Shown: piece after piece, positions 20,987-39,248 of the stretch | How the letters are laid out: each line of letters starts with the position of its first letter | Numbering within the stretch: position 1 is the first letter of the stretch | Source of the DNA: a virus | Taxonomy: Duplodnaviria > Heunggongvirae > Uroviricota > Caudoviricetes | DNA: 64,000 nucleotides | Reading direction: 5' to 3' (one strand) | Virus record (IMG/VR): IMGVR_UViG_3300029305_002265 | Notes under the pieces: generated by a model | Database searches by the model: none | The model's input: only the letters and a program-made list of their open reading frames with translations | What the model was told of the DNA's origin: nothing | Program-made: the position numbers and the translations under genes

Positions 20987-22954
20987 TTATTCTCCTATCA
21001 TATTAAGAAATTCATCTTCGGTAATAATCGGTATATTTAGTTCGACTGCCTTCTTGTACTTACTACTGCCGCTCTGCTCATTTGTAATTAAGTAGTCTGT
21101 GTTCTTGCTAACTGAACCAGCAGCCTTCGCGCCAAGTTCGGCAATCTTTGCGTTAATACTGTCCCTAGTGAACGAGTTAAGCTTGCCCGTGACACATACT
21201 GTTTTGCCCATAAACGGATTTTCTTTTGCCTCTGTTTTCTTCTGAATAACGAACTTCATCTCAGACGCCAAATCAACGATTTCTGCCTCATTTTCCGTTA
21301 AGTACTTAGTGATATTTTGGTTTGTCTTGTCTCCGATGTCCGAGAGGTCTGCCCAATTATAATGGGTCTTAAATGCCTTATAAAACGCATCAAAATCACC
21401 ATTGAATGCATCGGCAATAGTCTTAGATGCAGACTTACCTACGCCATCTATCGAAAGAGCGCAGATGAAATTTTCAAGTTTAACATTTCTTGAATGATCT
21501 ATAGCATCAAGGATTTTGGCTACGGATTTTTCTCCAAAACCATCGAGCTGCTCCCACTCACGTCCGTGTTGATATAGATAATAAATATCTCTAAACTGTT
21601 TAATCCAACCTTTATCTATAAGAACCTCTAGAATCGCTTCGGAAAGTCCTTCAATATTCATTGCAGGCTTGGATACGAAGAACTTCAATCTACCCAATAA
21701 TTTGCCTAAGCAATTAGGGTTTTTACACATAAGTACTTCGGAAGCGTTCTCGGTCACCACTTCGGTTTCCTCTCCACAAACGGGACAGTACTTAGGGATT
21801 TTTATAGGAGAATCGCCATCCTGGAGGCATTCTTCTACTTGGGGAATAATTTCATTTCGTTTGCTGATTTTTACGGTACAATTATTGGTTAAACCAAGCT
21901 TCTTGATAATAGAAATGTTATGAAGCGATGCTCTTGAAATATCACATCCGTCGATCTGCACGGTTTCAAATACTGCCGTAGGAGTTAGAGCTCCCGTCTT
22001 ACCCATCGTCCACTCTACGTCTGTGAGTTTGGTTTCGTAGAGTTCATCGTAGAATTTATACGCCATACCACCCCTAAAGTGATGTCCCGTTCTACCAGCA
22101 GATTCATATTCTGAACACTTATTCCACTTAAATACAATGCCGTCAATTGGATACTGAGTATATTCATCATTAGCATTTTTAAGCCATCTCGCAGCATTGT
22201 CTAAATCCAGAACCGTAAAAGATATGATTTCAAAATTATAATCTATAAGTTCTGCTAGTTTTTTATTTAAAGTATTACACTTTGTATCACAGCCCTCGAT
22301 ACAATCCCATGCTACAAAGGTTAGTTTTCTTTTAGCACATTCCTTACTATCAAGCAATCTAATGCTTCCAGAGGCAAAGTTTCTAGCGTTTTTATATTCT
22401 CCTTCAAACTCCTTAAAATCATCATGTTTGCAAACGATCTCGCCATCAACTATGAGTCTACCTTTATGAGGAATTCTCTTAGGAATAGAAGGAATAACCA
22501 TAGCGTTGTGAGTAACATCCTCGCCAATTTCGCCGTCACCACGAGTCTCTGCTCTTACAAGCCGACCGTTCTCATACAGAAGTGAGCATGTCAAACCGTC
22601 CAACTTCAACATAGCAATCCAATCTCTGTTGCCAATGAAAGACTTGATTTCCTCAATGTCCTTAGTCTTGTCGAGCGACAACATAGGATGATTATGCTTA
22701 ACCTTCTGTAGTTCATTAACAACGGTATAGTTTACCTTCTGAGTGGGCGAGTTAGGCAGAATATATCCCCTCTCGTGTTCAAGCGCCACAAGCTCAAAAT
22801 ACATATCATCCCACTCTTTGTCGCTAATTTCGGGAGTGCCCTTATCATAAAGCTCTGTGTGTTTGTTTAGTTCTGCAACCAAATATTCAACTCTTGCTTT
22901 TGTGTCAAACTTTTCCATTTTCTTTCTCCTTAATGTACTTTTCCATTTCTTCAA
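20987..22954 (-). CDS. ligA: NAD+-dependent DNA ligase
   Basis: Adenylation motif KLDG (…AMLKLDGLT…), 655 aa, OB/Zn/HhH/BRCT-like C-terminus. Confidence 0.9.
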   Translation of the reverse strand: MKKWKSTLRRKKMEKFDTKARVEYLVAELNKHTELYDKGTPEISDKEWDDMYFELVALEHERGYILPNSPTQKVNYTVVNELQKVKHNHPMLSLDKTKDIEEIKSFIGNRDWIAMLKLDGLTCSLLYENGRLVRAETRGDGEIGEDVTHNAMVIPSIPKRIPHKGRLIVDGEIVCKHDDFKEFEGEYKNARNFASGSIRLLDSKECAKRKLTFVAWDCIEGCDTKCNTLNKKLAELIDYNFEIISFTVLDLDNAARWLKNANDEYTQYPIDGIVFKWNKCSEYESAGRTGHHFRGGMAYKFYDELYETKLTDVEWTMGKTGALTPTAVFETVQIDGCDISRASLHNISIIKKLGLTNNCTVKISKRNEIIPQVEECLQDGDSPIKIPKYCPVCGEETEVVTENASEVLMCKNPNCLGKLLGRLKFFVSKPAMNIEGLSEAILEVLIDKGWIKQFRDIYYLYQHGREWEQLDGFGEKSVAKILDAIDHSRNVKLENFICALSIDGVGKSASKTIADAFNGDFDAFYKAFKTHYNWADLSDIGDKTNQNITKYLTENEAEIVDLASEMKFVIQKKTEAKENPFMGKTVCVTGKLNSFTRDSINAKIAELGAKAAGSVSKNTDYLITNEQSGSSKYKKAVELNIPIITEDEFLNMIGE

Positions 22955-24832: not shown

Positions 24833-24908
24833 TGGCTGGCGATGTAGGATTTGAACCTACGAATAACGGAGTCAAAGTCCGCAGTGTTGACCGCTTCACC
24901 AATCGCCA
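24833..24908 (-). tRNA. tRNA-Gln (anticodon TTG), CCA encoded
   Basis: Hand-folded cloverleaf: acceptor TGGCGAT/ATCGCCA, anticodon loop CTTTGAC, T-arm GTAGG-TTCAAAT-CCTAC. Confidence 0.7.
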
Positions 24909-25058
24909 GTATAGATGGCGATTCTTAACTCTTTCGAGAGGCCAATCGCCTTAGCCTTGAGCCGTCTGTTCCCAGCAGATGACTCACTGAATTGTGAAGC
25001 GTATTGCTTCAATAAAAATGTGATTAAATCGTGCGAGGTTCCGTCTTAGAACTTCTGC

Positions 25059-25148
25059 TGGCGCAAAGGGAGGGATTCGAACCCTCGGACTCCGAAGAGT
25101 CGCCGCGTTAGCAGTGCGGTGCAATCGACCAGACTCTGCCACCTTTGC
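25059..25148 (-). tRNA. tRNA-Ser (anticodon GCT), long variable arm, CCA encoded
   Basis: Acceptor GCAAAGG/CCTTTGC, anticodon loop CTGCTAA, variable hairpin GACTC-TTCG-GAGTC, T-arm GAGGG-TTCGAAT-CCCTC. Confidence 0.7.
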
Positions 25149-25654
25149 ATATGAATACGGTTAACTTTCCTCAAGATGACGATCCAAGGAGATTTGAACT
25201 CAGTTCACCGTAAGCATCACACCACGCCAATGCTTAAGACCGCCATATGTAAGAAGAAAGTATAAGTGTCCTTAAGGAACCTTTTCTACACTGGTAGATA
25301 GGCAATTTCACCAAGCAGTATGCCTTAACACAGTACACTACACTCCCTCTGCTTGGGTTTCATTGGGCTGTTCATCTAACTCCATTTCACCACTGCTGCT
25401 ATCTCCTTGTTATACTCATTACAGCAAGAATTTCTTCTTCATTCGAGTTCCTTTTGTGTAACGCCAACACCAAATGCGTCTACCAATCGGAAGGCTTCGT
25501 GGCACCCAACTTAACTTCCTTGATTAGGCGCAAGGGAACGCCACACTTAAGCAGGCGGATATTCCTCCGCAGTAGAATTTCTCATGACCAAATCCTCCTT
25601 TGCTAAGTATCGTAAGCTTTTGAGCTTGTTTTTGTCCTTACGGACTGGAGCGAT

Positions 25655-25765
25655 AGGCTAGATTCGAACTAGCATGTCTACCAAGACTTAAACGGAATCG
25701 AACCGCACGGGCTATAACCCCACTTTACCATTATAGTTTACTATCGCGCATGCCCCACACTTAAC
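25655..25765 (-). pseudogene. tRNA-like element: acceptor-like pairing GCGATAG/CTATCGC + T-arm GCTAG-TTCGAAT-CTAGC + TCCA, but about 100 nt long with no canonical D/anticodon arms. Possible tRNA pseudogene, intron-containing tRNA or other tRNA-like RNA
   Basis: Read on the minus strand; the internal segment has a second TTCGATT T-loop-like motif. Confidence 0.25.
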
Positions 25766-26044
25766 GCTAACAGACTCCTACTGACCAGTGGGCTACGGCT
25801 ATGACATTACTTCATTCTGCTTCGAAGGGACATTTGTTATCCGCATTTCCTTACGGGCAAGACCTGCTTTCACCCATTTGCAATTGGGTTTCTTTTAATA
25901 ATCCTTCGGCTTAACCCCGCCTACCACGCGGGTGCTTTATTTCGAATTACGCATTCTTACTTGCGTACCATTAACCTACAACGCTATTCGACAGGGTTGT
26001 TATAATTTTTTACTAGCAGACCTTAACAACTTATCATACTGCCC

Positions 26045-26120
26045 TGGTGAGTCTGGAGAGATTCGAACTCTCGACCCCGTGATTAAAAGTCACGTGCTCT
26101 GCCAACTGAGCTACAGACTC
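26045..26120 (-). tRNA. tRNA-Lys (anticodon TTT), CCA encoded
   Basis: GAGTCTG acceptor, D-arm TAGCTCAGTTGGCAGAGC, anticodon arm CGTGA-CTTTTAA-TCACG, T-arm GAGAG-TTCGAAT-CTCTC. Confidence 0.85.
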
Positions 26121-26129
26121 ATATAAAGT

Positions 26130-26180
26130 GAGATTTCTAAAACCCTCCACAGTGGGAAACTCCATCTCGATGTTTTTTTA
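26130..26180. ncRNA. Conserved hairpin element 1 (GAGATTTCTAAAACC…GGAAACTCCATCTC + T-run), paralogue of 26392-26440
   Basis: Shares stem position, TCTAAAACC and GGAAACT loop blocks and a trailing T-run with element 2; sits between tRNA-Leu(TAG) and tRNA-Lys. Confidence 0.4.
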
Positions 26181-26209
26181 TTACAGGAGGTGATCGTATG
26201 ATGTACGAA

Positions 26210-26294
26210 TGGTGCAGATACTGGGATTCCAACCCAGACGCCTTGCAGCAATAGATCCTAAGTCTATCGTGTCTTGCAGTTCCACCATATCTGC
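26210..26294 (-). tRNA. tRNA-Leu (anticodon TAG), long variable arm, CCA encoded
   Basis: Acceptor GCAGATA/TATCTGC, anticodon arm ATAGA-CTTAGGA-TCTAT, T-arm CTGGG-TTGGAAT-CCCAG. Confidence 0.7.
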
Positions 26295-26298
26295 ATAT

Positions 26299-26383
26299 TG
26301 GTGCGAATGGTGGGACTTGAACCCACACGCTTTATAGCAATGGTGTTTGAGACCACATCGTCTGCCAATTCCGACACACTCGC
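26299..26383 (-). tRNA. tRNA-Leu (anticodon CAA), long variable arm, CCA encoded
   Basis: Acceptor GCGAGTG/CATTCGC, anticodon arm GTGGT-CTCAAAC-ACCAT, T-arm GTGGG-TTCAAGT-CCCAC. Confidence 0.7.
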
Positions 26384-26591: not shown

Positions 26592-27089
26592 TTATGACAA
26601 GAAATTTTTCGACTTATATTTATGTATGTTCTTGCCCTTATAATTGTCGGTTAAGGCATGACAATTAGGACATAATAATTGTAAATTTTCTATATTGTTA
26701 TTTTCTTTATTTCCATCTTTATGATGTACTTCAAGTGGTATAGGAACATTATTCCATAATGTATTTTTACAACACTCACAAATATGTTCTTTAAGTCCCT
26801 CGCGAAGAAGTTTCTTTCTTATTTTGTTGGTTTGAACATTTTTACTTTTAATATATTCATTAAATGGAACATATCTATCACTTTCATAAGTTTTTCCAGA
26901 TAACCAACCTTGTCCAGTGAAATGAGATATATCGAGATTTAATTCTTGAATCATTGATTGCAAAGTTATATAACTAGAACCGCACTTACTGTATCCTAAT
27001 TTTTGAGATAATGTTGACCAACTATAACTTTCTTTTACATATTGTTCAATCTCTTGTCTGGTGTAATTTCTCCATTTTGCTTTCTTCAT
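26592..27089 (-). mobile_element. HNH homing endonuclease (165 aa) inserted in the tRNA island
   Basis: C-terminal HNH motif EVHHKDGNKENNNIENLQLLCPNCH; N-terminal DNA-binding-like region; AT-rich relative to its flanks; homing endonucleases typically sit in phage tRNA clusters. Confidence 0.75.
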
Positions 27090-27688: not shown

Positions 27689-27753
27689 ATTATAGCACAA
27701 CTTTTTCGTTTTGTCAATACCTTTTCGTAATCGTTTACAATCTGTTTACAATT
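27689..27753 (-). promoter_or_regulatory. Sigma70-type promoter (TTGACA-N17-TGcTATAAT) with TTGTAAACAGATTGTAAAC repeats; likely drives the tRNA-island transcript
   Basis: rc of 27712-27717 is TTGACA and rc of 27689-27694 is TATAAT with an extended -10; repeats at 27733-27753. Confidence 0.5.
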
Positions 27754-28001: not shown

Positions 28002-28030
28002 ATTATATCATAATCATTCTGTTTTGTCAA
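28002..28030 (-). promoter_or_regulatory. Sigma70-type promoter TTGACA-N17-TATAAT for the HPr-like gene
   Basis: rc of 28025-28030 is TTGACA and rc of 28002-28007 is TATAAT. Confidence 0.45.
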
Positions 28031-28081: not shown

Positions 28082-28990
28082 CTAGTGGGCCGCCTTATCG
28101 GCTTCGTGAAGTTGCATTATATCATTATACAATTCTTCTCCCCAAAGCCTACGATACTTATTGTGCAACTTCTCATTATTATCCTTTTCCCAGAAGTAAG
28201 GTTGCATGTGCCAACGAATTAAAACTGCAACATACAGCAGATCTATCTTATCAGAAAAATCTTCGCGATAAAATAAACTATCATAGCTGCCTGTGTGCTC
28301 GTGGTTGTAATAATGAGCTTGTTCGGTTATCTCACCTTTTGTATTTTTGAATGTCTTGCAAAATGGTTTACCGCAATCGTGCAGCATTCCAGCGAATTTA
28401 AGTTCCTTCGACGTATTATTTAATTTAACACATACTGCTTCACAATGCTCGCCTAACGTTAAAGTATGATGTGTATTATGTTGATTAAAATGTTTATTCG
28501 CAAGATAAAAATTGTTAGGGAGTCTATAATTCGTATCATAATGCATAACTATTATATCATCCCATCCCTCATAGTCCCACGGCGGATCAAAATTCGTATA
28601 CATTCTTTTGATAACATACTCAGGCACTTTTCTGTCTCTTTTTGCACTACGCTCAAGACAGGTCTCGTATGGAGTCGCCATTAATACACAGACTTTTTTA
28701 CAGGGAATATTCTTTAATTCCTGTAAAAACGCTTTACGCTCCTTATAGTGGACACAACAAGCATCATATATACAACTTTTCCCACTCCTTAAATCATCCT
28801 TAACGCGCTGATGGAGTGTCTTGAAGACTAAGACGTTGTTTTCTTGATTATTAGTGTCTCCTGTAAGCTCCTCACGAATAGCGTCACTAGAATGAATATT
28901 GGCGTTGTAGTTCTTGGCAAGTCTTATGGCTTCTGTGGATTTGCCACTACAGGGTAAACCGCACATCATCCAAAAAGTCGGTCTATTCAT
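28082..28990 (-). CDS. Bifunctional P-loop kinase + HD phosphohydrolase (Pnkp-like polynucleotide kinase/phosphoesterase candidate)
   Basis: N-terminal Walker A MMCGLPCSGKST (T4 Pnk/AAA_33-like); C-terminal HD motifs (…MLHDCGKP…H…HEH…). Confidence 0.5.
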   Translation of the reverse strand: MNRPTFWMMCGLPCSGKSTEAIRLAKNYNANIHSSDAIREELTGDTNNQENNVLVFKTLHQRVKDDLRSGKSCIYDACCVHYKERKAFLQELKNIPCKKVCVLMATPYETCLERSAKRDRKVPEYVIKRMYTNFDPPWDYEGWDDIIVMHYDTNYRLPNNFYLANKHFNQHNTHHTLTLGEHCEAVCVKLNNTSKELKFAGMLHDCGKPFCKTFKNTKGEITEQAHYYNHEHTGSYDSLFYREDFSDKIDLLYVAVLIRWHMQPYFWEKDNNEKLHNKYRRLWGEELYNDIMQLHEADKAAH

Positions 28991-29784
28991 TTGTCTATTT
29001 CCTTTCTAAAACTATGCTTTAACACATCAAATAACACGCTATTCATAATCTCATCAACCTCAGAGTCGATAACCAATGGGTGGGTATCCATATATTCTTG
29101 CTTTGTAAGTTTAACAAGATATTCAATGTTATTTGCCATTTGCCTTGCTTCTTCCAATGAATGAATATACTCAGCCTTAACGTTGATTAAATACTGAGGG
29201 TTCGTAGGAATAAGACATTCTGCATAAGAAGTTCCAGCGATATACCTATTAAGAAACTCTTCACAACGAATAATGTGGTGCAATTGTTTATTGTCGTAAC
29301 CATACTTTTTGATCTTTTCAATAAGTGTGGGATACGGATGTTCCATCGCTTTATGCTTTTCGTACACCATTCCTGCAATGCAATTAACCGCCGCATAGTT
29401 ATTATAGTGCGCTATCTTTTCATTGCTATCAAACATAGGTTGATATAAATCTGCATATTCTGGATTAAGATACTTATATTTCGTGAATAGGATTTCTATG
29501 AAGTTGATATTTTGCTTACGAAAACAATCGTGCATTAATCTGATATCTTTAATATCTATATGTTCGTTGCTCGGCAATATTAATGTTGTGCTTGCAGGTT
29601 TACGATTAAGCACGAAGTCTTCAAATGCGGGAATGACTATCGCCTTAGTGTCGATATCGCTGCCCTCATAATCAAGATGGTAGTTTTGGGAGCCTTGAAG
29701 AAAAACTCCCAAAACCTTATAGCCCAAAGAGGCGGCATAATCAAAATCGGATTTCAGTCTATTGAAAATTTTATCATCTTTCAT
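28987..29784 (-). CDS. Pol-beta-superfamily nucleotidyltransferase (265 aa); function unknown, possibly an RNA 3-prime-end modifying/CCA-type or MNT-type NTase
   Basis: hG[GS]x9-13Dh[DE] NTase signature in LQGSQNYHLDYEGSDIDTKAIV. Confidence 0.4.
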   Translation of the reverse strand: MKDDKIFNRLKSDFDYAASLGYKVLGVFLQGSQNYHLDYEGSDIDTKAIVIPAFEDFVLNRKPASTTLILPSNEHIDIKDIRLMHDCFRKQNINFIEILFTKYKYLNPEYADLYQPMFDSNEKIAHYNNYAAVNCIAGMVYEKHKAMEHPYPTLIEKIKKYGYDNKQLHHIIRCEEFLNRYIAGTSYAECLIPTNPQYLINVKAEYIHSLEEARQMANNIEYLVKLTKQEYMDTHPLVIDSEVDEIMNSVLFDVLKHSFRKEIDK

Positions 29785-29794
29785 TTAAATCTCC

Positions 29795-31012
29795 TTAATT
29801 TCCAATCTCAATCAAATACTTAATAGTCATCTGGTCTTCCTTATACACTACAATCTCATCATTTCGAAGCATACCTCTATCGGCGTGTGCATGTAGGCAG
29901 TTTGCTCCCTGCTTAAACTGTTGTAACTTATTATAATCAAGGTTATAATACTTGCTGTCAAAATTGTACACATCATAAGGCGTTCCATAAGCCACATCAA
30001 AGATTGCCATATAAGCAGTGTTGTTACCGCCGTGAGCCCAATAAGAACCAGAGAGCGAGGTATAACCAATACTCTTTGCACACTTGGGGGCGTAATACAC
30101 TCCGTACCCAAACATCTTTCCTGTAATTACGGCATTAGTAGGTCTAAGTACTAAGCCTGTCTTAATAATAGACCAGAAATTCTCACTACGACTGCCATGG
30201 AACAGAAGTCTAGTGTCCTTGATGTCATTCTCCTTAACAAACTTATCAAAACGCTCCTGAGTCTTCAGATTGGTAACTCTCCAAGCCTTTTTAAACTTAT
30301 CAGCGGATTCTTTCATCAAAGTCTTAATTAGGGCAATATCATCTTTTGTAGTTTCTTCCATAACAAGACCAAGCTCTTCGAGAATGGTCTGCTGTTTCTT
30401 TTCGGTTGTGGTAACAGACTCAATCTCTGGCTTCACATAAATCTGTCCACGCATTACATCAAGAAGATCTTGCTCCTTGGTGATAATCTTTGAAAAATCT
30501 TCTGTCTTATTTGCCAGACAATAACGTACATCACTCATTCTTCTAGGAATAACTGTAAACAAGTTAAGCAGATTGGCATTAAACGCATCAACGGTTATGC
30601 TATTATTGGCGAGCTCATCAATAATCTTCTGTGCTGCATCCACCATATCCTGAGTAACAGCAGATGCTTTTACAGTATAGTTCTTGTTAATAGTCTCACG
30701 GGCAAGACTCTGAAGCTTATCCACAATTGCTTTTATGGCTGCGTTCTCAATGTCCTTGTATGGGCTTTCAGGATTGGTAGAGGAAACTTCCTCCACCAAG
30801 TCCTTCTTAAGATCAGTTACATCCTGGTAACCCTTTTTGAGTTTTGATTTGATTTGTGAATCCCATTTAGACATAGGATAATATGCTGTTGTTTTAGTTG
30901 CATCTACTCTGCCGTATTCAACACGGAACTGATTGCCTTCTGGAAAAAGATTATAGTACTTATTATTATTTGCCGTAGTTACCATAATCAAATAAGTAGG
31001 TCTTACTTCCAT
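29795..31012 (-). CDS. PARP-like ADP-ribosyltransferase: N-terminal WGR-like domain, helical linker, C-terminal PARP catalytic domain with the H-Y-E triad
   Basis: LLFHGSRSENFWSIIKTGL (PARP1 LLWHGSRTTNFAGILSQGL), GYGVYYA (GKGIYFA), RNDEIVVY (YNEYIVY); N-terminal …FRVEYGRVD…KLKKGYQ WGR pattern. Confidence 0.7.
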   Translation of the reverse strand: MEVRPTYLIMVTTANNNKYYNLFPEGNQFRVEYGRVDATKTTAYYPMSKWDSQIKSKLKKGYQDVTDLKKDLVEEVSSTNPESPYKDIENAAIKAIVDKLQSLARETINKNYTVKASAVTQDMVDAAQKIIDELANNSITVDAFNANLLNLFTVIPRRMSDVRYCLANKTEDFSKIITKEQDLLDVMRGQIYVKPEIESVTTTEKKQQTILEELGLVMEETTKDDIALIKTLMKESADKFKKAWRVTNLKTQERFDKFVKENDIKDTRLLFHGSRSENFWSIIKTGLVLRPTNAVITGKMFGYGVYYAPKCAKSIGYTSLSGSYWAHGGNNTAYMAIFDVAYGTPYDVYNFDSKYYNLDYNKLQQFKQGANCLHAHADRGMLRNDEIVVYKEDQMTIKYLIEIGN

Positions 31013-31024
31013 AGCACCCTCCTA

Positions 31025-31450
31025 TCAAATCTCACAAAACAGAATTTCAACATCCGTATCTTCAAAGACTTCACAAATAATATCGTAAACCTTGTCCCAA
31101 TCGAGACGGTCGAGTCCCGATGCAATTTTCGGCATTGCAAGCTTAGTAGTAGCATTCGTTTCCATTATGTCTCTCATAGTCTCAAGCGCTTCTTTAACCG
31201 CCTCGTATCTTGGCTTATGATAACACTTAGGCTTAGTTACAAGGTTAAATACATTATCAATAAGAAGCGCATCTCCGCCTTTGTAAGAGTACATATCATA
31301 CTCTCTGAAGAGCTTAAATCTCATATTGTAAACTTCATCAAAAGTCTTTGCTATACCTGCACCAAGTGCAAAATCTGCACTAATGCAATGAGCAAGATAA
31401 TAACCCTGAGGTACCGTAAATAAATCTCTCTGTTCAATGGTAATATTCAT
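31025..31450 (-). CDS. Macrodomain protein (ADP-ribose binding/hydrolase family)
   Basis: N-terminal RDLFTVP…AHCISADFALGAGIAKTF and C-terminal MPKIASGLDRLDW match the macro-domain core pattern (GDLF…N.x…GxGIA…; P.IGtG…). Confidence 0.55.
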   Translation of the reverse strand: MNITIEQRDLFTVPQGYYLAHCISADFALGAGIAKTFDEVYNMRFKLFREYDMYSYKGGDALLIDNVFNLVTKPKCYHKPRYEAVKEALETMRDIMETNATTKLAMPKIASGLDRLDWDKVYDIICEVFEDTDVEILFCEI

Positions 31451-31468
31451 AATACTTCTCCTTCGTTA

Positions 31469-32524
31469 TTACTTTCCTTCATCGAAAATATCGGACGGAA
31501 GAATATACCGACCATCACTGCCTACCACAAGCGGAAGTTCTCCATTCCAACCTTCTGCCATAATCTTTTCAATAAGGGCATCGGTAATAGACTCTGCAAT
31601 CTGCTTGTTCGCCTCTGCCTCTGCGGCAGCCTGAATTTTAAGCGCCTCGGCCTTTGCCTTTGCGATCTCAATTTCTGCCTGAGCCTCCTTAAGCTTTGCC
31701 TGTGCCTTTGCTTCTGCGGCAATAACTTCTGCCTTTGCTTCAGCATCTGCTTTTGCAAGGTTGGCCTCATTCTTGTTCTCTTGGATAATCAAATCCTGCT
31801 CAGATGCAAACTTAGCATCAATTGCCTCCTGGATATCGGGATTCTCAAAAGAAAATCCTTCCTTAATGCCAAGAACAGTAATGGTAATACCATATTCCTT
31901 GAAATATTCAACTACGGCAGTCTTGACCTTTTCTACAATTTCTGCCTTATGAGTATGAAGCTCAGTGCTCTTATACTGGCTAGTTGCGATATTAAACTGA
32001 TCCTCAACCATCTTCTTGATATCAGTATCAATAATGGTTTCAAGAGGAGTATTGTTATAACGGTAAAGGAACTTAGCAGCATCCTTTTCCTCAATCATAG
32101 CCGTGCAGTTCATACCGACATAAATTCCAATGGCATCGGATGTTTCACCAAAAATAGCCTTATTGCTACTGGTTGCAGCAGAATCGCCAGATTCCCAAGA
32201 ACGAGATACGGGCTTGCGCTCAACAACAATTACAGTTGCAGAAGGACGCCAGTTACCCATCCAATGACGACGACCAGTCTGGACCCAGCGATGCGGGATC
32301 TGAATCTCTTTGGTTGCAACCTTGGTTTCGAGAAGCAGAGCCTCAGACTCAAAAGTGCCCTGATTGGTGGTGTCGCCTATAAGAGGAATGAGGAACGCAG
32401 TCTGCGAGGGTTCGATAGTCATAAATTCGGGCTTGTCGTAAGGTTTGCGGCAACTAGTGAAGCAGCAAAGAATGAGAGTAAGAAGTGTTGCGAGAATAAA
32501 AGTTCTAAAAATAGTCTTTTTCAT
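31469..32524 (-). CDS. SPFH/band-7 (prohibitin/HflK-like) lipoprotein with a C-terminal A/K/E-rich coiled coil
   Basis: Lipobox LILCCFTSC; SPFH-like core followed by (AEAKA)n low-complexity. Confidence 0.55.
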   Translation of the reverse strand: MKKTIFRTFILATLLTLILCCFTSCRKPYDKPEFMTIEPSQTAFLIPLIGDTTNQGTFESEALLLETKVATKEIQIPHRWVQTGRRHWMGNWRPSATVIVVERKPVSRSWESGDSAATSSNKAIFGETSDAIGIYVGMNCTAMIEEKDAAKFLYRYNNTPLETIIDTDIKKMVEDQFNIATSQYKSTELHTHKAEIVEKVKTAVVEYFKEYGITITVLGIKEGFSFENPDIQEAIDAKFASEQDLIIQENKNEANLAKADAEAKAEVIAAEAKAQAKLKEAQAEIEIAKAKAEALKIQAAAEAEANKQIAESITDALIEKIMAEGWNGELPLVVGSDGRYILPSDIFDEGK

Positions 32525-32808
32525 TATATATTAAGTTCCTTTTCTAATTTATTCATATAAATAGCGGAGTAAATGTTTCTTCCGCAGATAATACAAGTGA
32601 GAAGACGAATGATAGTAAATATCATAGGGACATAGTTCCAGAGCCTCCAAGTGGCATAGCTCATATCATCGTTTTCAAGCTGACCTAGAGCCATGTCATT
32701 GGTAAATGTGGGCATAAATGCGTCAGAGATAATTGTCAATGCTATAAAAATTACAATTACCACAATGAGATTTATAATAATTTTCTTAACCATTATTTTC
32801 CTCCACAA
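32524..32808 (-). CDS. Small membrane protein (94 aa, three TM helices)
   Basis: Hydrophobic ORF coupled to neighbouring genes. Confidence 0.35.
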   Translation of the reverse strand: MWRKIMVKKIIINLIVVIVIFIALTIISDAFMPTFTNDMALGQLENDDMSYATWRLWNYVPMIFTIIRLLTCIICGRNIYSAIYMNKLEKELNI

Positions 32809-33146
32809 AAAGGACAGTTGCTTGAAGAGAAGAGGATATAAGTGCCCTCAGCGCAGAAAATATTATCATACTCTGCGGTTTTTACCTCAATGCCTGAACC
32901 TTCGTTTTCATACCACTTTTCAATGGTTGCGCAATGACCTTCTACTCCGTTGAAGAAGTGGATATGCCTAAAATCGTAGCTTCCCCAACCTATGCTCCTA
33001 TTGTTTGCGCTCACTTCAGTGGGGCATAGAGTGATGAACGCGGAGACCATCATAGCTGATACAAGCAATGCGCAAATAACAATAACTACTTTATTCATTA
33101 TTTGATTCCTCCTGGCTCTCTTCCATATCAGGAGCCTCTGCTTCAA
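32793..33146 (-). CDS. Small secreted/membrane Cys-containing protein (117 aa)
   Basis: N-terminal hydrophobic segment; C-terminal CPFCGG. Confidence 0.3.
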   Translation of the reverse strand: MKQRLLIWKRARRNQIMNKVVIVICALLVSAMMVSAFITLCPTEVSANNRSIGWGSYDFRHIHFFNGVEGHCATIEKWYENEGSGIEVKTAEYDNIFCAEGTYILFSSSNCPFCGGK

Positions 33147-34494
33147 CCTTCACAATGCCCTCAAGAGCCTTGAAGAACCAATTCTTATGCTTATATGCAC
33201 AGAACTTAGGACGGTTGATAATACGAACCACTACACCCTCACGAACATGCGTCTTACCAATGGGATCGGGTCCATCATAGAACTCTTCGGCAGCTTTTAT
33301 AACCATATCACCAACCGTGCCATCACCAATTAGATAATCGTGGTCATATCCATCTGGAGCAACTAGATGCAGTCTATCGCTGCTTATTGTTGCCGTTCCA
33401 AATACAGGAACGCACTTAACACCCATCTGCTCACAACGATAACGCATAAAGTCAGGAGTGTATTCTACGGTAAAGCCATCCTCATTGGTCATCGTCATAC
33501 GATATACATAGATATCAGACTGAGGACCAACCCACACGACATCTTCATAGTGACCTTCGTCGGTGCCTTCGGGATCACATCCGTAAGAGAATACAGTAGT
33601 CTGTCCATACTGCTTAACAAAATCCTTATCATTAAGCTTCTTATTGTCGCCACTTGCCATAATGGGAGCCCCAGTATGAGTGAATCCTACGACTTCGTAG
33701 AAAATCTCCTCGCCCTTATTCAGCTTACCCTCAAAGAACTTTGAGTGTGCTTCACGGAACTCATTAGAACCATAATATCCACCTTCAAAATTCTCAAGTA
33801 CGGTACGACGGGTACCAGATACATATCCCCAATCGTAGATAGGCTTACCTTCACGACGGAGAACCTTATCAATAAGAGTTCTCTTATACTTCTTGAACAC
33901 GGGAAGATAACCAGTTCTCTGACTCGTTCCGTGCATCTTGAGCGTAATTTCAATCTCATCACCAGGCTTAAACGCTGCGAGGTTGTACGCAAGCTGCTCA
34001 GTGTCTGCGTGTTCTGCAAAAAGGGGCGCCACAGGAACCTTCTTCTTGCGAGTCTTATTACCCTCGGAATAATGTCCTCTTCTATTTTGCTTTCGAGGGA
34101 TGTACTTACAACAAATCTCGTGACCATTGAAGTTGTCAATTCTATCACCCTCACGAAGAGCAGTAATGTCTCCAAAGGATTCGAGCGCCTTTAGAGGAAG
34201 GAAGAGACCATCCGACTTCTCTCCACGAAGTTTGATTGCGGTTACATTTCTCTTGTCTGGGTCCATATAACCGCCGATGTTGTTTCCTGCATCATCCTTC
34301 TTGCGAAGCAAATTATTTGCCTCAGCGAACTCGACTGAGAGCTGACCATCCGAAGGAAAATACACACCGAGCTGATTGTCTTCATACTCCATCGATACGA
34401 TTACTGCGTTTCCAAAACACTCACCAATCTGAAGTCTATCGGCATTAGGATGCTTATGTAGATTCTTAATTCTTGTAATATAAGCGTTATACAT
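33091..34494 (-). CDS. ATP-dependent RNA ligase (Rnl-type nucleotidyltransferase) fused to an N-terminal tRNA-binding (Myf/EMAP-like) domain
   Basis: N-terminal IKNLHKHPNADRLQIGECFGNAVIVS resembles the tRNA_bind motif (HPNADKL…V.VG); ligase motifs I KMHGTS, III EIFYEVVGF, IV REGVVVR, V AYKHK. Confidence 0.55.
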   Translation of the reverse strand: MYNAYITRIKNLHKHPNADRLQIGECFGNAVIVSMEYEDNQLGVYFPSDGQLSVEFAEANNLLRKKDDAGNNIGGYMDPDKRNVTAIKLRGEKSDGLFLPLKALESFGDITALREGDRIDNFNGHEICCKYIPRKQNRRGHYSEGNKTRKKKVPVAPLFAEHADTEQLAYNLAAFKPGDEIEITLKMHGTSQRTGYLPVFKKYKRTLIDKVLRREGKPIYDWGYVSGTRRTVLENFEGGYYGSNEFREAHSKFFEGKLNKGEEIFYEVVGFTHTGAPIMASGDNKKLNDKDFVKQYGQTTVFSYGCDPEGTDEGHYEDVVWVGPQSDIYVYRMTMTNEDGFTVEYTPDFMRYRCEQMGVKCVPVFGTATISSDRLHLVAPDGYDHDYLIGDGTVGDMVIKAAEEFYDGPDPIGKTHVREGVVVRIINRPKFCAYKHKNWFFKALEGIVKVEAEAPDMEESQEESNNE

Positions 34495-35119
34495 TCTTCT
34501 TCATCTCCTCTGCTCTTACAATGGCCTCTGCCATCTCCTGGATTCGCTTCTCTCTTTCCATAGCACGCTTCTTCGCCCAATGTGCCTTCACCTTCTGATA
34601 ATTCTTTTCGGCCTTTGCCTTCTTTCGAGCTTCCTCTTCTGCTCTCTTCTTCTTGTCTGCTTCTGCCTTGTCGTAAAACTTAGTCGCATAAGAAAGCAAC
34701 TTGCTAAGAACGGCTGTGCCTTCCTTACCAATCATTTCCTTGACAATACAACGAAGAAGTCCGTCCTCAAAGAAGTAGGGATCGTTACCCTGGACGGTCG
34801 CCGTCTGAGTGTCACCGTTTACAAAAGTCATCTTGATGGTGTTTTCGTTAAACACGCCGATAGACTTGATTGCAGGAATGAGATCCTGGCTGCCATCAAA
34901 GAAACCGTCCTTGTAGTATCGTGCAACAATTCGACCAAACTCAACTTCAAGCGACGAACGCTGGTCAGGTCTGACCTCAGGCTTCTTAGTTGCCTCTTCT
35001 ATTGCAGAGGTTATATTGGAAAGTGAGTTGGAAGTTACAACCTCATTGACGAAATTCCAACAAGGCTCGCCGTCGTAAGTGTAAGTTACATTGCCATTAT
35101 GGCCCGCTTTAATTGTCAT
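34487..35119 (-). CDS. Hypothetical protein with a C-terminal K/E/A-rich coiled coil; start set at the second ATG after AAGGAG
   Basis: Promoter-proximal; the first ATG belongs to the conserved leader motif. Confidence 0.35.
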   Translation of the reverse strand: MTIKAGHNGNVTYTYDGEPCWNFVNEVVTSNSLSNITSAIEEATKKPEVRPDQRSSLEVEFGRIVARYYKDGFFDGSQDLIPAIKSIGVFNENTIKMTFVNGDTQTATVQGNDPYFFEDGLLRCIVKEMIGKEGTAVLSKLLSYATKFYDKAEADKKKRAEEEARKKAKAEKNYQKVKAHWAKKRAMEREKRIQEMAEAIVRAEEMKKNV

Positions 35120-35154
35120 TTTCTTTTTCTCCTTAATCATTTCGTTGTGTGCAT

Positions 35155-35219
35155 ATTATAGCACAGTTTCTTTTATTTGTCAATAGACTTTGTGTATCGT
35201 TTACATTTTATTTACAATC
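35155..35219 (-). promoter_or_regulatory. Sigma70-type promoter TTGACA-N17-TGcTATAAT with TTGTAAATAAAATGTAAAC repeats
   Basis: rc of 35178-35183 is TTGACA and rc of 35155-35160 is TATAAT; repeats at 35198-35219. Confidence 0.5.
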
Positions 35220-35969
35220 AGGCTTAAATGTCGGTATTGGATTTAATTTGAATAAATTCTTCTGGTGAAGGTGATCAATTTTTGCCTTTGCTACTTCATC
35301 TTCGCATACACCAGTGCGAATATATTTATTCAATACTTCATAGGTAAACCCAAAGTTATCCTCGTCAGTTTTGCCACAGAGACCGTCTGAAGGTGTCTTG
35401 TGAGTCAACTCATATGGAAGTCCACAGGCATCGCCAATAGCAACCACTTCATCAGAAGTAAAGTTTAGTATGGGCATTAAATCTGCTACATTATCGCCCC
35501 ACCTGGTGGAATAACCTATATATGCTTCTGAGGCATTATCTGTTCCAACAACACGTCCATTTACACTTTGAGATATGGCATAAAGCGTTGCCATACGAAT
35601 ACGAGGAGGAAGATTTATGGTTGTCTGCTTGCTAATTTCAATATCCGTCGGAAACTGATTGTCAATACCAACAACAGCATCCCAAATATTCATAGTATAA
35701 CTTTTAATCCCAAGACATTGAATAAGTTTATTAGAATCATCGATATCAGGCTGTACACCACAGGGCATCTTTACACCGATTACTCTGTCCTTGCCAAGAG
35801 CTTCTACGCAAAGCGCAGCTACAACGCTTGAGTCTTTACCACCACTAATACCAATTACAGCATTACAACCTTTTCCATTCTGTTCAAACCACCCTCTAAT
35901 CCAAGCGACAATTCTATCTTTAATCTCTATCGCATTAAAATTATTCATGTGTAATCTCCCCATTTTCAA
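35208..35969 (-). CDS. nadE: NH3-dependent NAD+ synthetase
   Basis: PP-loop ATP pyrophosphatase motif GISGGKDSS; 253 aa, NadE-like. Confidence 0.8.
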   Translation of the reverse strand: MKMGRLHMNNFNAIEIKDRIVAWIRGWFEQNGKGCNAVIGISGGKDSSVVAALCVEALGKDRVIGVKMPCGVQPDIDDSNKLIQCLGIKSYTMNIWDAVVGIDNQFPTDIEISKQTTINLPPRIRMATLYAISQSVNGRVVGTDNASEAYIGYSTRWGDNVADLMPILNFTSDEVVAIGDACGLPYELTHKTPSDGLCGKTDEDNFGFTYEVLNKYIRTGVCEDEVAKAKIDHLHQKNLFKLNPIPTFKPDCK

Positions 35970-36348
35970 TTTTAGTAATTAATTTATCCAACATTCTATA
36001 TACAGAAGGCAAGCCACCTCTATCATCAATATAAGCATTTGCATATGTTTTGCGCCCACCAAAAGATATAGAACTGTCACAGTTAATACCTTTATATTTA
36101 ATGCCTACATTTTCCATATACTCCTTGATTATTGGATGCTGCGCTTCGCCATTTCCTGTTAAAATAACAACCTCTGAATAAGGCTCCCAACGTTTGAGGA
36201 GCGTAATAACATCACTATAAGAACGACCAAGTTTATGAAAATCATAGATGGTATCATCGAAGTCTACGCAAAAGATGAGTTTGCCATACTTCTTGAATTC
36301 ATCTTCAAGTCTTTGATAGCAATTTTCTTCAGAAAGATAAAAATCCAT
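35941..36348 (-). CDS. Small HAD-superfamily phosphatase (135 aa)
   Basis: DxDxT motif CVDFDDTIY; size similar to stand-alone polynucleotide/nucleotide phosphatase domains. Confidence 0.45.
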   Translation of the reverse strand: MDFYLSEENCYQRLEDEFKKYGKLIFCVDFDDTIYDFHKLGRSYSDVITLLKRWEPYSEVVILTGNGEAQHPIIKEYMENVGIKYKGINCDSSISFGGRKTYANAYIDDRGGLPSVYRMLDKLITKIENGEITHE

Positions 36349-37826
36349 TAAAAATTACCTCCGTGCAATCTATCTCTAATTTCTGCAAGAGTCTGCTCTT
36401 TAGTCATTACTCCATCTTTGAATATGGTGACTAAATGATTCTGATAATCATATTTTGCTTCATCCCATGTAGCACCATCTATATAAACAAGTGCTTCTTT
36501 CTCTCGACTCCATCTAACGGAACAACATCCCTTCTGCGACTTCTTAAAACCACCATCTTTAGGATTCTTGAATATCGGATATGGCTTACCGTCAATCTCA
36601 CAATAAGTCGCCTTGATGCAAGAACTAAAAGTATCTCTTGTGAAAGGCTTCAGAATACCATCTTCCTCAACACACTGGAACGAGAACGAACCAACACCAA
36701 GAGCAACATTGGAACAAGCAAATCCATTTTCCATAAGAATTTGATAAATCTGTTCGCAACGCTGGATAGTAATACTGTCGCCATAAATTGCTTTCACATG
36801 AGGATTAAGCACTTTATATCCCTTACTATTAATAGTACCACCAAAGATATCCCAAAGTTTAAAAACGGTTTTGGTTACAACCTCAACACAGTCACCAGAG
36901 TCACCACGCATAAGCATGCAACCATTGTGTGCAAGGATTTCTTCCTTAAGTCTAGGAAGAATATTGTCAATTACATTCCAATAATCATAAGAGTCAAGTA
37001 CAGCAGAAAAACTTGTGTTAGGGTAAATTTCTGTAAGCAGTCTTCTAAGAAGAGTTTCCTCATCGCCATCAACGGCATAGTTACTGCACATTACAGAATG
37101 CTCAGTAGAAGGCGAACCAAAAGCCACAGGTTCTTTTGTACAATCACAGTTATAATTTGCCTCAAGGTAAGGAATTGTAGGAACAGTTGCCGTATTCAAG
37201 AAGGATAGACACCAACCAGCTCCCGCCTTTTCAGCAGATTGTAGACATTCTTCACCTCTAAAGTCGAATGCACCAAGTGCTCTTGCTCTCGGAATATTGT
37301 CATCACAAGTGAGGTCATAATACTTGTTGACAATTTCTCTATATGTATAACCAACAGTAGCAGCAAGCATTGGATGCCATATCTCAGCAGAAATAAGGGA
37401 TTCTAAACTCTGAGGCAACCACGCAAAATCAGGGTGAGTGTTTGTAATACCAAACATCGGCACATGCATAGGTACAAGCGTTCCTTCGGGAAGTGCTACA
37501 ATTTCAATAGGAAGATAGCCAAGCTTGTGAAGATGTTCAATTTTATCAATTTTATATGTGTCCTTGCCAAGAGTTGCATCCATAACTCTCTTATATTCAG
37601 AGATTACTTCATCAAAAGACTTGTTAAAGAATTCGTTGTTAAAATAATCAATAAGATAGGTCTTAATGAATCCCTGAAGTCCAAACATTACCACCTTGTC
37701 CCATCTCTTTACTCTGCTCATGCGAGGAGTAAAGTAAGATACGGACTTAGTAATGCCCTTGGGGAGCATTTCGGCATGGACAGCCTTATAGAAATCAATT
37801 AACAACATAGGATTTGTTCTTCTCAT
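36348..37826 (-). CDS. Nicotinamide phosphoribosyltransferase family protein (NAMPT/NadV or Namat-like)
   Basis: N-terminus NPMLLIDFYKAVHAEMLPKGITKSVSYFTPR parallels NAMPT NILLATDSYKVTHYKQYPP…VYSYFECR; 492 aa. Confidence 0.8.
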   Translation of the reverse strand: MRRTNPMLLIDFYKAVHAEMLPKGITKSVSYFTPRMSRVKRWDKVVMFGLQGFIKTYLIDYFNNEFFNKSFDEVISEYKRVMDATLGKDTYKIDKIEHLHKLGYLPIEIVALPEGTLVPMHVPMFGITNTHPDFAWLPQSLESLISAEIWHPMLAATVGYTYREIVNKYYDLTCDDNIPRARALGAFDFRGEECLQSAEKAGAGWCLSFLNTATVPTIPYLEANYNCDCTKEPVAFGSPSTEHSVMCSNYAVDGDEETLLRRLLTEIYPNTSFSAVLDSYDYWNVIDNILPRLKEEILAHNGCMLMRGDSGDCVEVVTKTVFKLWDIFGGTINSKGYKVLNPHVKAIYGDSITIQRCEQIYQILMENGFACSNVALGVGSFSFQCVEEDGILKPFTRDTFSSCIKATYCEIDGKPYPIFKNPKDGGFKKSQKGCCSVRWSREKEALVYIDGATWDEAKYDYQNHLVTIFKDGVMTKEQTLAEIRDRLHGGNF

Positions 37827-38629
37827 AATTCAAATACCTCAATCTTTTCGTGTTCCTTTGTAAAAATACTGTTAGTCGTATAAACTCTTTCAATGAAACC
37901 GCTTGTAAGAAGTTCGCCTTCGAGGATAGTGTTTTCACAATGAGTTATATAAAGATATATGTTCTTAGCACCAGCCTCTTTGAGTGCTTTAGCAGAATGA
38001 TAGAAAGTGCCACCACGAGAACAAATGTCGTCAATAATTAAAACATCTCTATCTTTTACAACATCTTTGTTCATTAGTTCAAGACCAAGAATCTTTCCTG
38101 TTTCCCAATCACGCTTTTTAATTCCGAAAGCATAAGCACCCTTTACATAATCTGTGCCACGCTTCATTGCGCCTTCATCTGGATAAAAAGCAACCAAGCC
38201 ATTTTTATTTGGGATAGCTTCAATTGTCCTAGTAATCATTTCCAGTGGATGTTTAACCTTAACATTGTTAATAAGCGCTGCACAAACATTGCTGTGCGGG
38301 TCAAGAATTCTCACTTCAGTAAAATTGAGACCGTTAATCACATCTGCGAAATGCTTCAGAGTAAAAAATTCATTAGAGCTTTTTACTCTGTCCATACGAG
38401 CGTGTGGACAATAAGGCATTTCAAGAATCATATCTTGTCTATCAAAATGTTTGCGAATGCAAATTATAGTAAACAGTTCGGCGTCGTTTTCATAGTGCCA
38501 AGTGAGTATCTTTGGAGATTTGCCAAACCAATCCAAACTAAAAATAGGCTCTGTATAATCGGTTTCAATTCTTAAAGAGTTGTCTGGAAAACGAGCCTGT
38601 GTTATAAGCTTATCATTTATTTTAATCAT
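37823..38629 (-). CDS. Ribose-phosphate pyrophosphokinase family protein (Prs or Adps-like); start moved to MIKINDK after GGAGAATAATT
   Basis: PRPP-binding loop VLIIDDICSRGGT; 4-nt overlap with the NAMPT-like gene. Confidence 0.7.
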   Translation of the reverse strand: MIKINDKLITQARFPDNSLRIETDYTEPIFSLDWFGKSPKILTWHYENDAELFTIICIRKHFDRQDMILEMPYCPHARMDRVKSSNEFFTLKHFADVINGLNFTEVRILDPHSNVCAALINNVKVKHPLEMITRTIEAIPNKNGLVAFYPDEGAMKRGTDYVKGAYAFGIKKRDWETGKILGLELMNKDVVKDRDVLIIDDICSRGGTFYHSAKALKEAGAKNIYLYITHCENTILEGELLTSGFIERVYTTNSIFTKEHEKIEVFEL

Positions 38630-38631
38630 AA

Positions 38632-39141
38632 TTATTCTCCAATCACATTTATCTGGCACATTTTCATTGTGGTAAGTGCCGCCTGATGAGTCTCAGGAGT
38701 TACACCAGCACAACAACTTGCATCTACTGTAATGCTGATTTCGGGGAACTGAGCCTTGAGAATAAGTGCATTAGACACTACGCAAATGTCGGTGCAAAGA
38801 CCTACGAGTTCAATTTCTTCAAAATCAAACAAGTCGTTCCAATATGTGCAACCGAAGGTGTATTTATCGACGTGAACACATTCTGGAGAATTAATTTCCT
38901 TTGTTATAAGCCAGCCCTCGGTGCCACGAATACAGTGTTCGACAGGCAAGTGCTTGCCCTCGTTGGTGGTAAGATAATATGCTGAATGAGTATCTCTTGT
39001 AAAGATAATCTCATCTCCACGAGCCTTATACTCTTCAATCTTCCTCTTTACATTTGGCACAATAGCCTGCGCCTCCTTAGTTCCGAGGGCGCCGTCAATA
39101 AAATCATTCTGCATGTCAATTACAATAAGCGTTCTTTTCAT
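38632..39141 (-). CDS. Isochorismatase-family cysteine hydrolase, nicotinamidase (PncA)-like
   Basis: VIDMQNDF (Asp), GLCTDICV (catalytic Cys) arrangement as in PncA. Confidence 0.65.
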   Translation of the reverse strand: MKRTLIVIDMQNDFIDGALGTKEAQAIVPNVKRKIEEYKARGDEIIFTRDTHSAYYLTTNEGKHLPVEHCIRGTEGWLITKEINSPECVHVDKYTFGCTYWNDLFDFEEIELVGLCTDICVVSNALILKAQFPEISITVDASCCAGVTPETHQAALTTMKMCQINVIGE

Positions 39142-39183: not shown

Positions 39184-39248
39184 ATTTTATCATATATTTT
39201 TAAATTTGTCAATAACTTACGCTTCTTATTTACATTTTATTTACATTT
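39184..39248 (-). promoter_or_regulatory. Sigma70-type promoter TTGACA-N17-TAAAAT with TTGTAAATAAAATGTAAATAAG repeats
   Basis: rc of 39207-39212 is TTGACA and rc of 39184-39189 is TAAAAT; repeats at 39226-39248. Confidence 0.45.

Follow-up and report, generated by a model that had tools for sequence, protein, structure and literature searches.

A minus-strand gene array (positions 28082 to 39141) in a 64,000-nucleotide stretch of viral DNA (IMG/VR record IMGVR_UViG_3300029305_002265, Caudoviricetes; hereafter the window, within which all features are numbered) carries a cassette of nicotinamide adenine dinucleotide (NAD+) synthesis genes and a gene pair for a poly(ADP-ribose) polymerase (PARP) together with a macrodomain. 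The two central enzymes of the cassette are of the NARP1 type (NAD+ reconstitution pathway 1), judging by their sequences, and the cassette as a whole, with a promoter of its own, is probably a deamidated (nicotinic-acid) variant of that pathway. The putative PARP writer and macrodomain eraser are a genuine conserved pair. We favor a division of the block into three separable modules, namely, the NAD+ cassette, the macro-PARP pair and the RNA-repair genes between them. The array is tight, with gaps of 2 to 168 bp or short overlaps, and reads, in the order of transcription, PncA, an enzyme with the fold of phosphoribosyl pyrophosphate (PRPP) synthetases (PRPS), a NAMPT-family enzyme, an HAD-like protein, NadE, a 217-amino-acid (aa) protein, RNA ligase, two small proteins, an SPFH-like lipoprotein, the macrodomain, PARP, a Pol-beta nucleotidyltransferase and a P-loop kinase/HD protein (Table 1). 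All the genes named in a preliminary description of the region were found on the minus strand at the positions it had given. The identical PARP protein is encoded by 25 metagenomic contigs, the gene order is repeated on full-length contigs among the matches listed, one of them 172 kb long, with 21 further places having mostly the same neighbors, and PARP has 4,498 homologues at E ≤ 1e-5, indicating that these genes are not chance open reading frames (ORFs). No match to the block was found by megablast among 50,697 phage records, so that it has no close relative in culture as far as the DNA is concerned.

NARP1 and NARP1-AP consist of the enzymes Adps and Namat with or without the macrodomain protein Adpp (Osterman et al., bioRxiv 10.1101/2024.02.11.579819, 10.64898/2026.01.28.702374), and NARP1 structures have been published (PMC12774641, PMC13586617). 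The Adps-like protein of the window has 37.6% identity to the validated Adps of SPbetaL1 (157 bits), versus 60 bits at most to any solved PRPP synthetase, and a short C-terminus of the Adps type, while for the Namat-like protein the SPbetaL1 Namat structures (9w5x/9w5w) give 406 bits and bacterial and human NAMPT 157 to 176 bits. As in NARP1, the two genes are adjacent, overlapping and in the same order, and their best matches are the validated SPbetaL1 enzymes; the 4-nt overlap (37823 to 37826) had already been noted in the preliminary description for a NAMPT-family and a PRPP-synthetase-family gene. Since both enzymes are closer to SPbetaL1 Adps and Namat than to PRPS and NAMPT, the pair is assigned by sequence to NARP1 and not to NadV/Prs, the alternative named in that description. 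Unlike phage NARP2 (Nampt plus NMNAT, e.g., in KVP40), the window enzyme falls in the Namat clade and no NMNAT was found, with no CTP_transf_like/NMNAT domain detected in the ca. 57 window ORFs scanned.

Within this type, the Namat-like enzyme is a variant. The nicotinamide pocket of SPbetaL1 Namat comprises Phe189, Arg192, Asp215, Ala242 and Arg306, of which Asp215 hydrogen bonds with the amide, and the D215A substitution cuts the output of the enzyme 8.1-fold (PMC12774641). Asp219 of human NAMPT likewise sets substrate specificity, which is switched by D219S (PMC7096376, PMC4919578). The window protein keeps Phe189, Arg192 and Arg306 as well as the clamp residues Arg40 (R38 here) and Phe392, but differs from NARP1 by the replacement of Asp215 with Ala, of Ala242 with Ser and of Tyr396, in the clamp helix, with Cys, and by a 9-aa clamp insertion before the TRD motif. 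We examined these positions in the window, in 49 loci, in L010 and L399 and in 79 further loci (sampled loci carry the prefix L; neighborhoods are 10 kb either side of each match), in overlapping sets of 50 and 79 loci spanning 47 to 100% identity. Throughout, position 215 is Ala (Ser in the branch with 47 to 52% identity) and position 242 is Ser, and PncA and NadE are both nearby, or one of them where the locus is truncated. In contrast, canonical Namats have Asp215 and Ala242 in 81 of 81 loci, with PncA or NadE in none of the 81, so that the constant addition of these two genes sets the variant operon apart from NARP1. The Namats of an Alicyclobacillus phage, of BPS10C, of Tsamsa and of L157 are also of the Asp215/Ala242 kind, and PncA and NadE are absent nearby. 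A Namat-like enzyme without the nicotinamide-binding Asp would explain the presence of PncA and NadE in the cassette. Some canonical Namats are 572 to 578 aa long (L157:738-2474; Bacillus phage Tsamsa gp189, L402:6881-8599), the extra length being an insertion of ca. 85 aa midway through the protein.

Both flanking enzymes, which had been named in the preliminary description together with the HAD phosphatase, are identified by sequence. In PncA, the catalytic D9/K93/C126 and the metal-binding D50/H52/H69 align with Pyrococcus horikoshii PncA (PDB 1IM5), and the NCBIfam equivalog score is under the cut-off; NadE reaches 171 bits with TIGR00552 versus a cut-off of 63.65. PncA is the first cassette gene in ca. 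50 related loci, and the order PncA-Adps-Namat-(HAD or second macro)-NadE is repeated in about 45 of the 49 loci found with the Namat protein. PncA and NadE are also the first and last enzymes of the Preiss-Handler pathway (PncA-PncB-NadD-NadE), from which the cassette differs in that the middle steps fall to an Adps/Namat-type pair, which would make an adenylyltransferase unnecessary. Locus L107 (L107:125-3201, IMGVR_UViG_3300045988_148852) encodes PncA and NadE and, between them, a 584-aa protein in which a cytidylyltransferase-like (NaMNAT-type) domain is fused to a full PncB nicotinate phosphoribosyltransferase. This set amounts to a complete phage-encoded Preiss-Handler pathway, located 4 kb upstream of macro-PARP, and no other sampled locus has a PncB::NaMNAT fusion. 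The fusion fills the slot that the Adps and variant Namat genes occupy between PncA and NadE; taken with the residue states, this suggests that the genes between PncA and NadE make nicotinic acid adenine dinucleotide (NaAD) from nicotinate. Many variant cassettes have Adpp-type macro genes, which argues that ADP-ribose (ADPR) is still a substrate. The pathway could then start with PncA turning nicotinamide, released by NADases or by the phage PARP, into nicotinate, while Adps would pyrophosphorylate ADPR to ADPR pyrophosphate (ADPR-PP); the Namat-like enzyme would couple nicotinate with ADPR-PP to give NaAD, which NadE would amidate to NAD+. The literature searched contained no paper that connects ADPR-PP to nicotinate or to NaAD.

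The HAD-type protein between Namat and NadE probably trims phosphorylated ADPR species to ADPR. Its four motifs (D29xD31xT33, T64, K100 and D108D109) are invariant in 20 homologues. It has no Pfam match, and the PDB sequence search was empty; an AlphaFold2 (AF2) model with a predicted local distance difference test (pLDDT) score of 80.6 gave HAD IIIA and C-terminal domain (CTD) phosphatases as top Foldseek matches, all of them weak (E ≥ 3.7e-3, template modeling [TM] score of ca. 0.45). The gene occupies the slot held in L010 and L068 by an Adpp-like macro gene, whose product is a Pfam-Macro protein of 152 to 171 aa. As in NARP1-AP, there is an accessory hydrolase gene inside the operon, but here it is an HAD phosphatase where sister cassettes have Adpp. 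From its position, the HAD-like protein may be an unrecognized NARP1 accessory phosphatase. The family (PHROG 1238, labeled "phosphoheptose isomerase") lies beside Namat in 11 of the 81 canonical NARP1 loci as well as in variant cassettes, where it alternates with an Adpp-type macrodomain in one slot. One homologue follows Namat in Bacillus phage BPS10C (BPS10C_011; L401:7274-7666) and another precedes it in L157 (L157:272-700).

The second module is built around a PARP. Its catalytic domain matches Pfam PF00644 (E = 1.1e-23, 84.2 bits versus a cut-off of 26.7, residues 238 to 403), and His272, Tyr306 and Glu386, within the motifs HGS, GVYYA and NDEIVVY, are in register with PARP1 H862, Y896 and E988. 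This H-Y-E triad is invariant among 8 divergent phage homologues, down to 28% identity. A WGR domain had been proposed beside the catalytic signature, and here too the prediction held, as a profile of phage PARP homologues covers full-length PARP2, from the WGR through the ADP-ribosyltransferase (ART) domain (profile positions 7 to 347), and the helical and ART domains of PARP1 (100 to 404). The Pfam WGR and PARP_reg models gave no match to the 405-aa protein at E ≤ 0.01. A point against this architecture is the AF2 model (20 homologues, 88 to 100% identity), which is poor except in the WGR region (pLDDT of 36.6), too poor to be used, so that the profile-to-PDB alignment is what supports the WGR-helical-ART arrangement. 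In the place of WGR the motif has YGR, the variant usual in bacterial PARPs (PMC5966428). In its domain order, triad and YGR motif, the phage protein resembles bacterial PARPs (Herpetosiphon HaPARP and Clostridioides difficile CdPARP; PMC5966428, PMC8120803) and, in the first two, also human PARP2 and PARP3; unlike them, it is phage encoded and has a TARG1-like macrodomain as partner instead of PARG. A core like that of PARP1 to PARP3 suggests that the enzyme is probably switched on by breaks or ends of nucleic acids, upon which it would transfer ADP-ribose from NAD+ to targets that may be proteins or nucleic-acid ends.

Phage PARPs were described as rare in the preliminary description, which does not agree with our searches. 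PHROG 23333 covers the protein over its full length and 16 phage records encode homologues, with PARPs annotated in Cellulophaga (phi4:1), Klebsiella (FBKp34) and Xanthomonas (XacN1) phages and unannotated matches in Stenotrophomonas phages. Iyer et al. list them with the viral ARTs that occur most frequently (PMC9503650) and also note phage PARPs in PMC7824862. They are, therefore, already known and not new, although the literature searched contained no experimental study of one.

What is conserved around this PARP is its partner. Residues 3 to 137 of the macrodomain match human TARG1/OARD1 (E = 6e-24), and K73 and D114 are the equivalents of TARG1 Lys84 and Asp125, which we take to be the catalytic residues; among 66 aligned macrodomain sequences the Lys is kept in 95% and the Asp in 70%. 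Full-length similarity and the retained Lys and Asp are shared with both human TARG1/OARD1 and the DarG macrodomain. The gene is 12 bp from PARP, and not ca. 100 bp as first thought. Among 87 nonredundant viral loci with PARPs of 51 to 91% identity, in which neighbors were read within 8 to 10 kb, a TARG1-like macro gene lies directly upstream of PARP on the same strand in 83. The pair is also present in metagenome-assembled genomes and isolates of Clostridia. No macro gene was found beside chromosomal Cytophagales PARPs, and the small genes that follow PARP in Cellulophaga phi4:1 and Klebsiella FBKp34 do not encode macrodomains, so that the pairing appears to be specific to the Clostridia-phage clade. 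The TARG1-like enzyme would strip the ADP-ribose attached by PARP from its targets, releasing ADPR. The recurrent neighbors are LigA (47 of 87 loci), PolIII-alpha (43 of 87) and RNA-repair genes (10 to 18 of 87). In many related phages (e.g., L112 to L114 and L146 to L152) LigA is directly upstream of macro-PARP, and this LigA-macro-PARP trio hints that the pair acts at DNA nicks or ends. Genes for a Thg1-like tRNA-His guanylyltransferase and a YqeY-like protein also recur near PARP (L010:719-1615 and 11590-12036; L002:9767-10174), the latter two genes downstream of PARP both in the Clostridia-phage clade and in Klebsiella phage FBKp34 (L002).

The region had been interpreted as a writer/eraser module coupled to its own NAD+ supply, of which the pair was confirmed and the coupling was not. 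A scan for promoters gave five top sites, all on the minus strand, and four of them are in intergenic gaps directly before PolIII-alpha and PncA, before the 217-aa gene and before the small gene past kinase/HD. From these sites we predict one unit that begins with PncA and ends with NadE, and another that begins with the 217-aa gene, ends with kinase/HD and includes macro and PARP. Just past the kinase/HD gene, the minus strand has two more perfect matches (12 of 12) to the sigma-70 consensus, each with an extended -10 (27689 to 27717 and 28002 to 28030), the former preceding a 71-aa ORF. An NAD+ salvage gene of any kind is near PARP in only 3 of the 87 loci (L010, L107 and L157), no more than expected from random placement in a 160-kb genome, which makes the close linkage in the window a lineage-specific feature. 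Conversely, none of the cassette loci found with the Namat protein has a PARP within 10 kb.

Nevertheless, some data weigh against such a separation. Of 49 contigs with the cassette, at least 14 also carry PARP, and of the 25 that are ≥100 kb long, 13 do, counts that ignore kinship; NAD+ cassettes of differing kinds are within 10 kb of macro-PARP in the window, L010, L107 and L157; and the stretch between the two units has no predicted terminator, which leaves room for their co-transcription by read-through. Some functional link between PARP and cassette may thus exist. In its strongest form, the whole 9.3-kb block would be one integrated system, in which the cassette feeds PARP and rebuilds NAD+ from nicotinamide and the ADPR released by the macrodomain. 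The shared contigs and the three other loci with differing cassettes speak for it, as do the co-directional genes with small gaps and no minus-strand terminator between units, and a chemistry that closes a cycle according to what is established for PARP, TARG1 and NARP1. Nicotinamide is an inhibitor of PARPs, and PncA could relieve this product inhibition. We consider such an integrated system unlikely, given the separate consensus promoters, the ca. 50 cassette loci without PARP within 10 kb, an NAD+ gene within 8 to 10 kb of PARP no more often than random placement would give, a separation of roughly 20 to 90 kb on shared contigs, and the presence of other NAD+ consumers in the phage, such as LigA. 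On balance, the modules seem to share metabolites (NAD+, nicotinamide and ADPR) without being a conserved operon. Their complementary chemistry, in which PARP frees nicotinamide, TARG1 frees ADPR and the cassette uses both, points to a metabolic link and not to a dedicated operon. The cassette is here 4 kb from the writer/eraser pair. A fuller version, in which the cassette is a self-sufficient deamidated NARP1 with a nicotinate ADP-ribose transferase as its Namat-like enzyme and, in this phage clade, also recycles the nicotinamide and ADP-ribose of PARP and TARG1, is a tentative proposal, with chances somewhat below even.

The nicotinate route itself has points that count against it. The variant Namats fall into 8 clusters at 70% identity in two branches (Ala and Ser) and are probably a single clade, so that the covariation of residues and genes may reflect one or two events. 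With the clamp helix altered by Tyr396 to Cys and the 9-aa insertion, the use of ADPR-PP is not assured and PRPP together with the host NadD could serve instead. PncA and NadE could also do nothing else than boost the host Preiss-Handler pathway beside an ordinary NARP1. A PRPP-based salvage would go further and dispense with NARP1: the Prs-like enzyme would make PRPP, the NAMPT-like enzyme nicotinate mononucleotide (NaMN) or nicotinamide mononucleotide (NMN), the host NadD NaAD, and the phage NadE would act last, as a Preiss-Handler booster. It would be in keeping with the disrupted clamp helix, with the match of the 492-aa protein to NCBIfam NF006629, "nicotinate phosphoribosyltransferase" (438 bits versus a cut-off of 405), with the PRPP activity that Namat keeps in vitro (PMC12774641) and with the true Preiss-Handler cassette of the related phage L107. 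However, the Prs-like protein, with its short Adps-type C-terminus, is much more similar to the validated Adps than it is to any PRPS, the adenine clamp retains Arg40 and Phe392, a macrodomain with ADPR as product occupies the Adpp slot of many such cassettes, and no NadD/NMNAT was found in the window, all of which makes this salvage quite improbable and leaves the deamidated NARP1 as our preferred reading of the cassette.

For the macro-PARP pair, a module resembling DarTG is the alternative, acting in toxin-antitoxin fashion or in superinfection exclusion for a temperate or plasmid-like phage, with PARP as toxin and the TARG1/DarG-like macrodomain as antidote. Like DarTG, the pair combines a macrodomain with an enzyme of ART fold, and the macrodomain weakly matches the DarG model (E = 7e-9); the pairing is tight with the antidote gene first, TubZ and serine and tyrosine recombinases in the window suggest a lysogenic or plasmid state, and phages are known to carry toxin-antitoxin pairs of the Sirtuin-macro and ART-ARG kinds (PMC9503650). 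Yet the partner is of the PARP1-3 type and not DarT, and the eraser gene comes first. Moreover, the pair is inside a co-directional replication/repair array and lacks both a promoter and a terminator of its own, PARP retains two parts of break-activated PARPs, the autoinhibitory helical domain and the WGR sensor, and the recurrent neighbors are LigA, PolIII-alpha and RNA-repair genes, so that we regard a toxin-antitoxin role as very doubtful. That the macrodomain is instead Adpp, the NARP1-associated phosphatase converting ADPR-1''-phosphate to ADPR, and functionally part of the NAD+ cassette, is hardly credible, in spite of the macrodomains that accompany 15% of NARP1 operons, the validation of Adpp (10.64898/2026.01.28.702374) and a match to PHROG 335 "phosphatase" (E = 5e-24), because it belongs to the other predicted transcription unit, ca. 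4.5 kb and seven genes away from Namat, is TARG1-like, stays directly upstream of PARP whether NAD+ genes are nearby or not, and coexists in L010 with a separate Adpp-slot macro. Yeast Poa1p (6LFQ), the reference for Adpp, was absent among its PDB matches at E ≤ 1. We rejected the macrodomain as Adpp, as it is neither within two genes of Adps/Namat nor Poa1p-like. The cassette-slot macro and the TARG1-like macro beside PARP, both present in L010, thus appear to have separate roles.

Table 1 Features of the array and related genes of the window
Feature	Position	Strand	Evidence
Promoter-like site before the NAD+ cassette, TTGACA-17-TAAAAT with TG extension	39184..39212	-	11/12 matches; in 168-bp PolIII-alpha/PncA gap
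PncA-type nicotinamidase, 169 aa	38632..39141	-	Pfam Isochorismatase, E = 6e-28; best solved relative P. horikoshii nicotinamidase 1IM5
PRPS-fold enzyme, Adps-like (predicted ADP-ribose pyrophosphokinase), 268 aa from ATG (ORF reaches GTG 38659)	37823..38629	-	Similarity to SPbetaL1 Adps
Namat-like transferase, variant subtype, 492 aa	36348..37826	-	Match to SPbetaL1 Namat structures 9w5x/9w5w
Small capless HAD-type phosphatase (putative), 135 aa, PHROG 1238	35941..36348	-	HAD motifs, weak fold matches
NH3-dependent NAD+ synthetase NadE, 246 aa from ATG	35208..35948	-	Pfam NAD_synthase, E = 2e-50; TIGR00552
Perfect sigma-70 promoter-like site opening the second unit, TTGACA-17-TGnTATAAT	35155..35183	-	12/12 matches; NadE/217-aa gap
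217-aa protein, first gene of second unit	34487..35140	-	63% identity beside RNA ligase in L008, L009
RNA ligase, DRB0094/PHA02142 type, 467 aa	33091..34494	-	PHROG 968, E = 1.4e-61; TIGR02306, E = 4e-15
Insertion: 101/117-aa protein, 89/94-aa membrane protein, SPFH-like lipoprotein (351 aa)	31469..33146	-	PHROG 200, Band_7
TARG1/OARD1-like macrodomain, predicted ADP-ribosyl hydrolase, 141 aa	31025..31450	-	Human TARG1 structures, E = 6e-24
PARP: WGR (YGR) + helical regulatory + ART domain with H-Y-E, 405 aa	29795..31012	-	Pfam, PHROG, alignments, profile-to-PDB
Pol-beta-type nucleotidyltransferase, RlaP-like, 265 aa	28987..29784	-	PHROG 388, E = 1e-9; L107 counterpart Pfam RlaP, E = 2e-13
P-loop kinase + HD phosphohydrolase, 302 aa, polynucleotide kinase (PNK)-like RNA-repair enzyme	28082..28990	-	AAA_33, E = 1e-22; HD, E = 3e-5
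NAD+-dependent DNA ligase LigA, second NAD+ consumer of the phage	20987..22954	-	NF005932, 531 bits versus cut-off of 369

The genes between and around the two modules (Table 1) include a putative RNA-repair module formed by the RNA ligase, the RlaP-like nucleotidyltransferase and the kinase/HD enzyme. The 217-aa protein had no Pfam or PHROG match. It had been suggested that an SPFH lipoprotein and two small membrane proteins tie the block to the membrane. The SPFH identity is weak in Pfam (Band_7, E = 9e-4, below cut-off) but has the support of PHROG 200 "lipoprotein" (E = 2e-25). The membrane tie is not supported, as these three genes are absent in the closest relatives (L006 to L009), in which macro comes directly after the RNA ligase, and they are thus considered a lineage-specific insertion. 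Just downstream of the RNA-repair/PARP unit there are six tRNA genes (Pro, Gln, Ser, Lys, Leu and Leu) and then an HNH endonuclease gene, in the segments 24756 to 26383 and 26592 to 27089. PARG, ARH, Nudix, SIR2, PncB and NMNAT were sought in the 64-kb window and none was found. The window also encodes NrdD/NrdG, dUTPase, NT5C and ThyX as well as replication genes, and it seems likely that the region belongs to the replication and nucleotide-metabolism arm of a phage of ca. 170 kb. A TubZ-like tubulin gene is next to a large serine recombinase (7935 to 11018) and two tyrosine recombinases are near the other end of the window (58792 to 60812), suggesting that the phage is temperate or lives as a plasmid prophage. 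An anaerobic gut species of Clostridia is the probable host, as predicted from the genes for anaerobic nucleotide reduction, an Amidase_2+SH3 lysin, the sigma-70 consensus promoters and the relatives found in Clostridia assemblies.

NAD+ depletion is central to bacterial antiviral immunity, and the ways in which phages rebuild NAD+ (NARP1 to NARP3, Adpp and RyDEP) are being described one after another. Both phage PARPs and NARP1 were known before; the conserved TARG1-like/PARP pair looks uncharacterized and the nicotinate version of NARP1 looks undescribed. If correct, a nicotinate-based NARP1 would represent a new reaction (ADPR-PP + nicotinate to NaAD), would explain the addition of PncA and NadE in a large group of apparently gut-associated phages and would provide a residue rule for Namat annotation (Asp215/Ala242 versus Ala or Ser215/Ser242). 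Should the cassette also recycle the nicotinamide and ADP-ribose of PARP and TARG1, the phage would have an ADP-ribosylation economy that is closed and does not depend on host NAD+ salvage. The TARG1-like/PARP pair, in turn, may offer a tractable bacterial-virus model for break-activated ADP-ribosylation.

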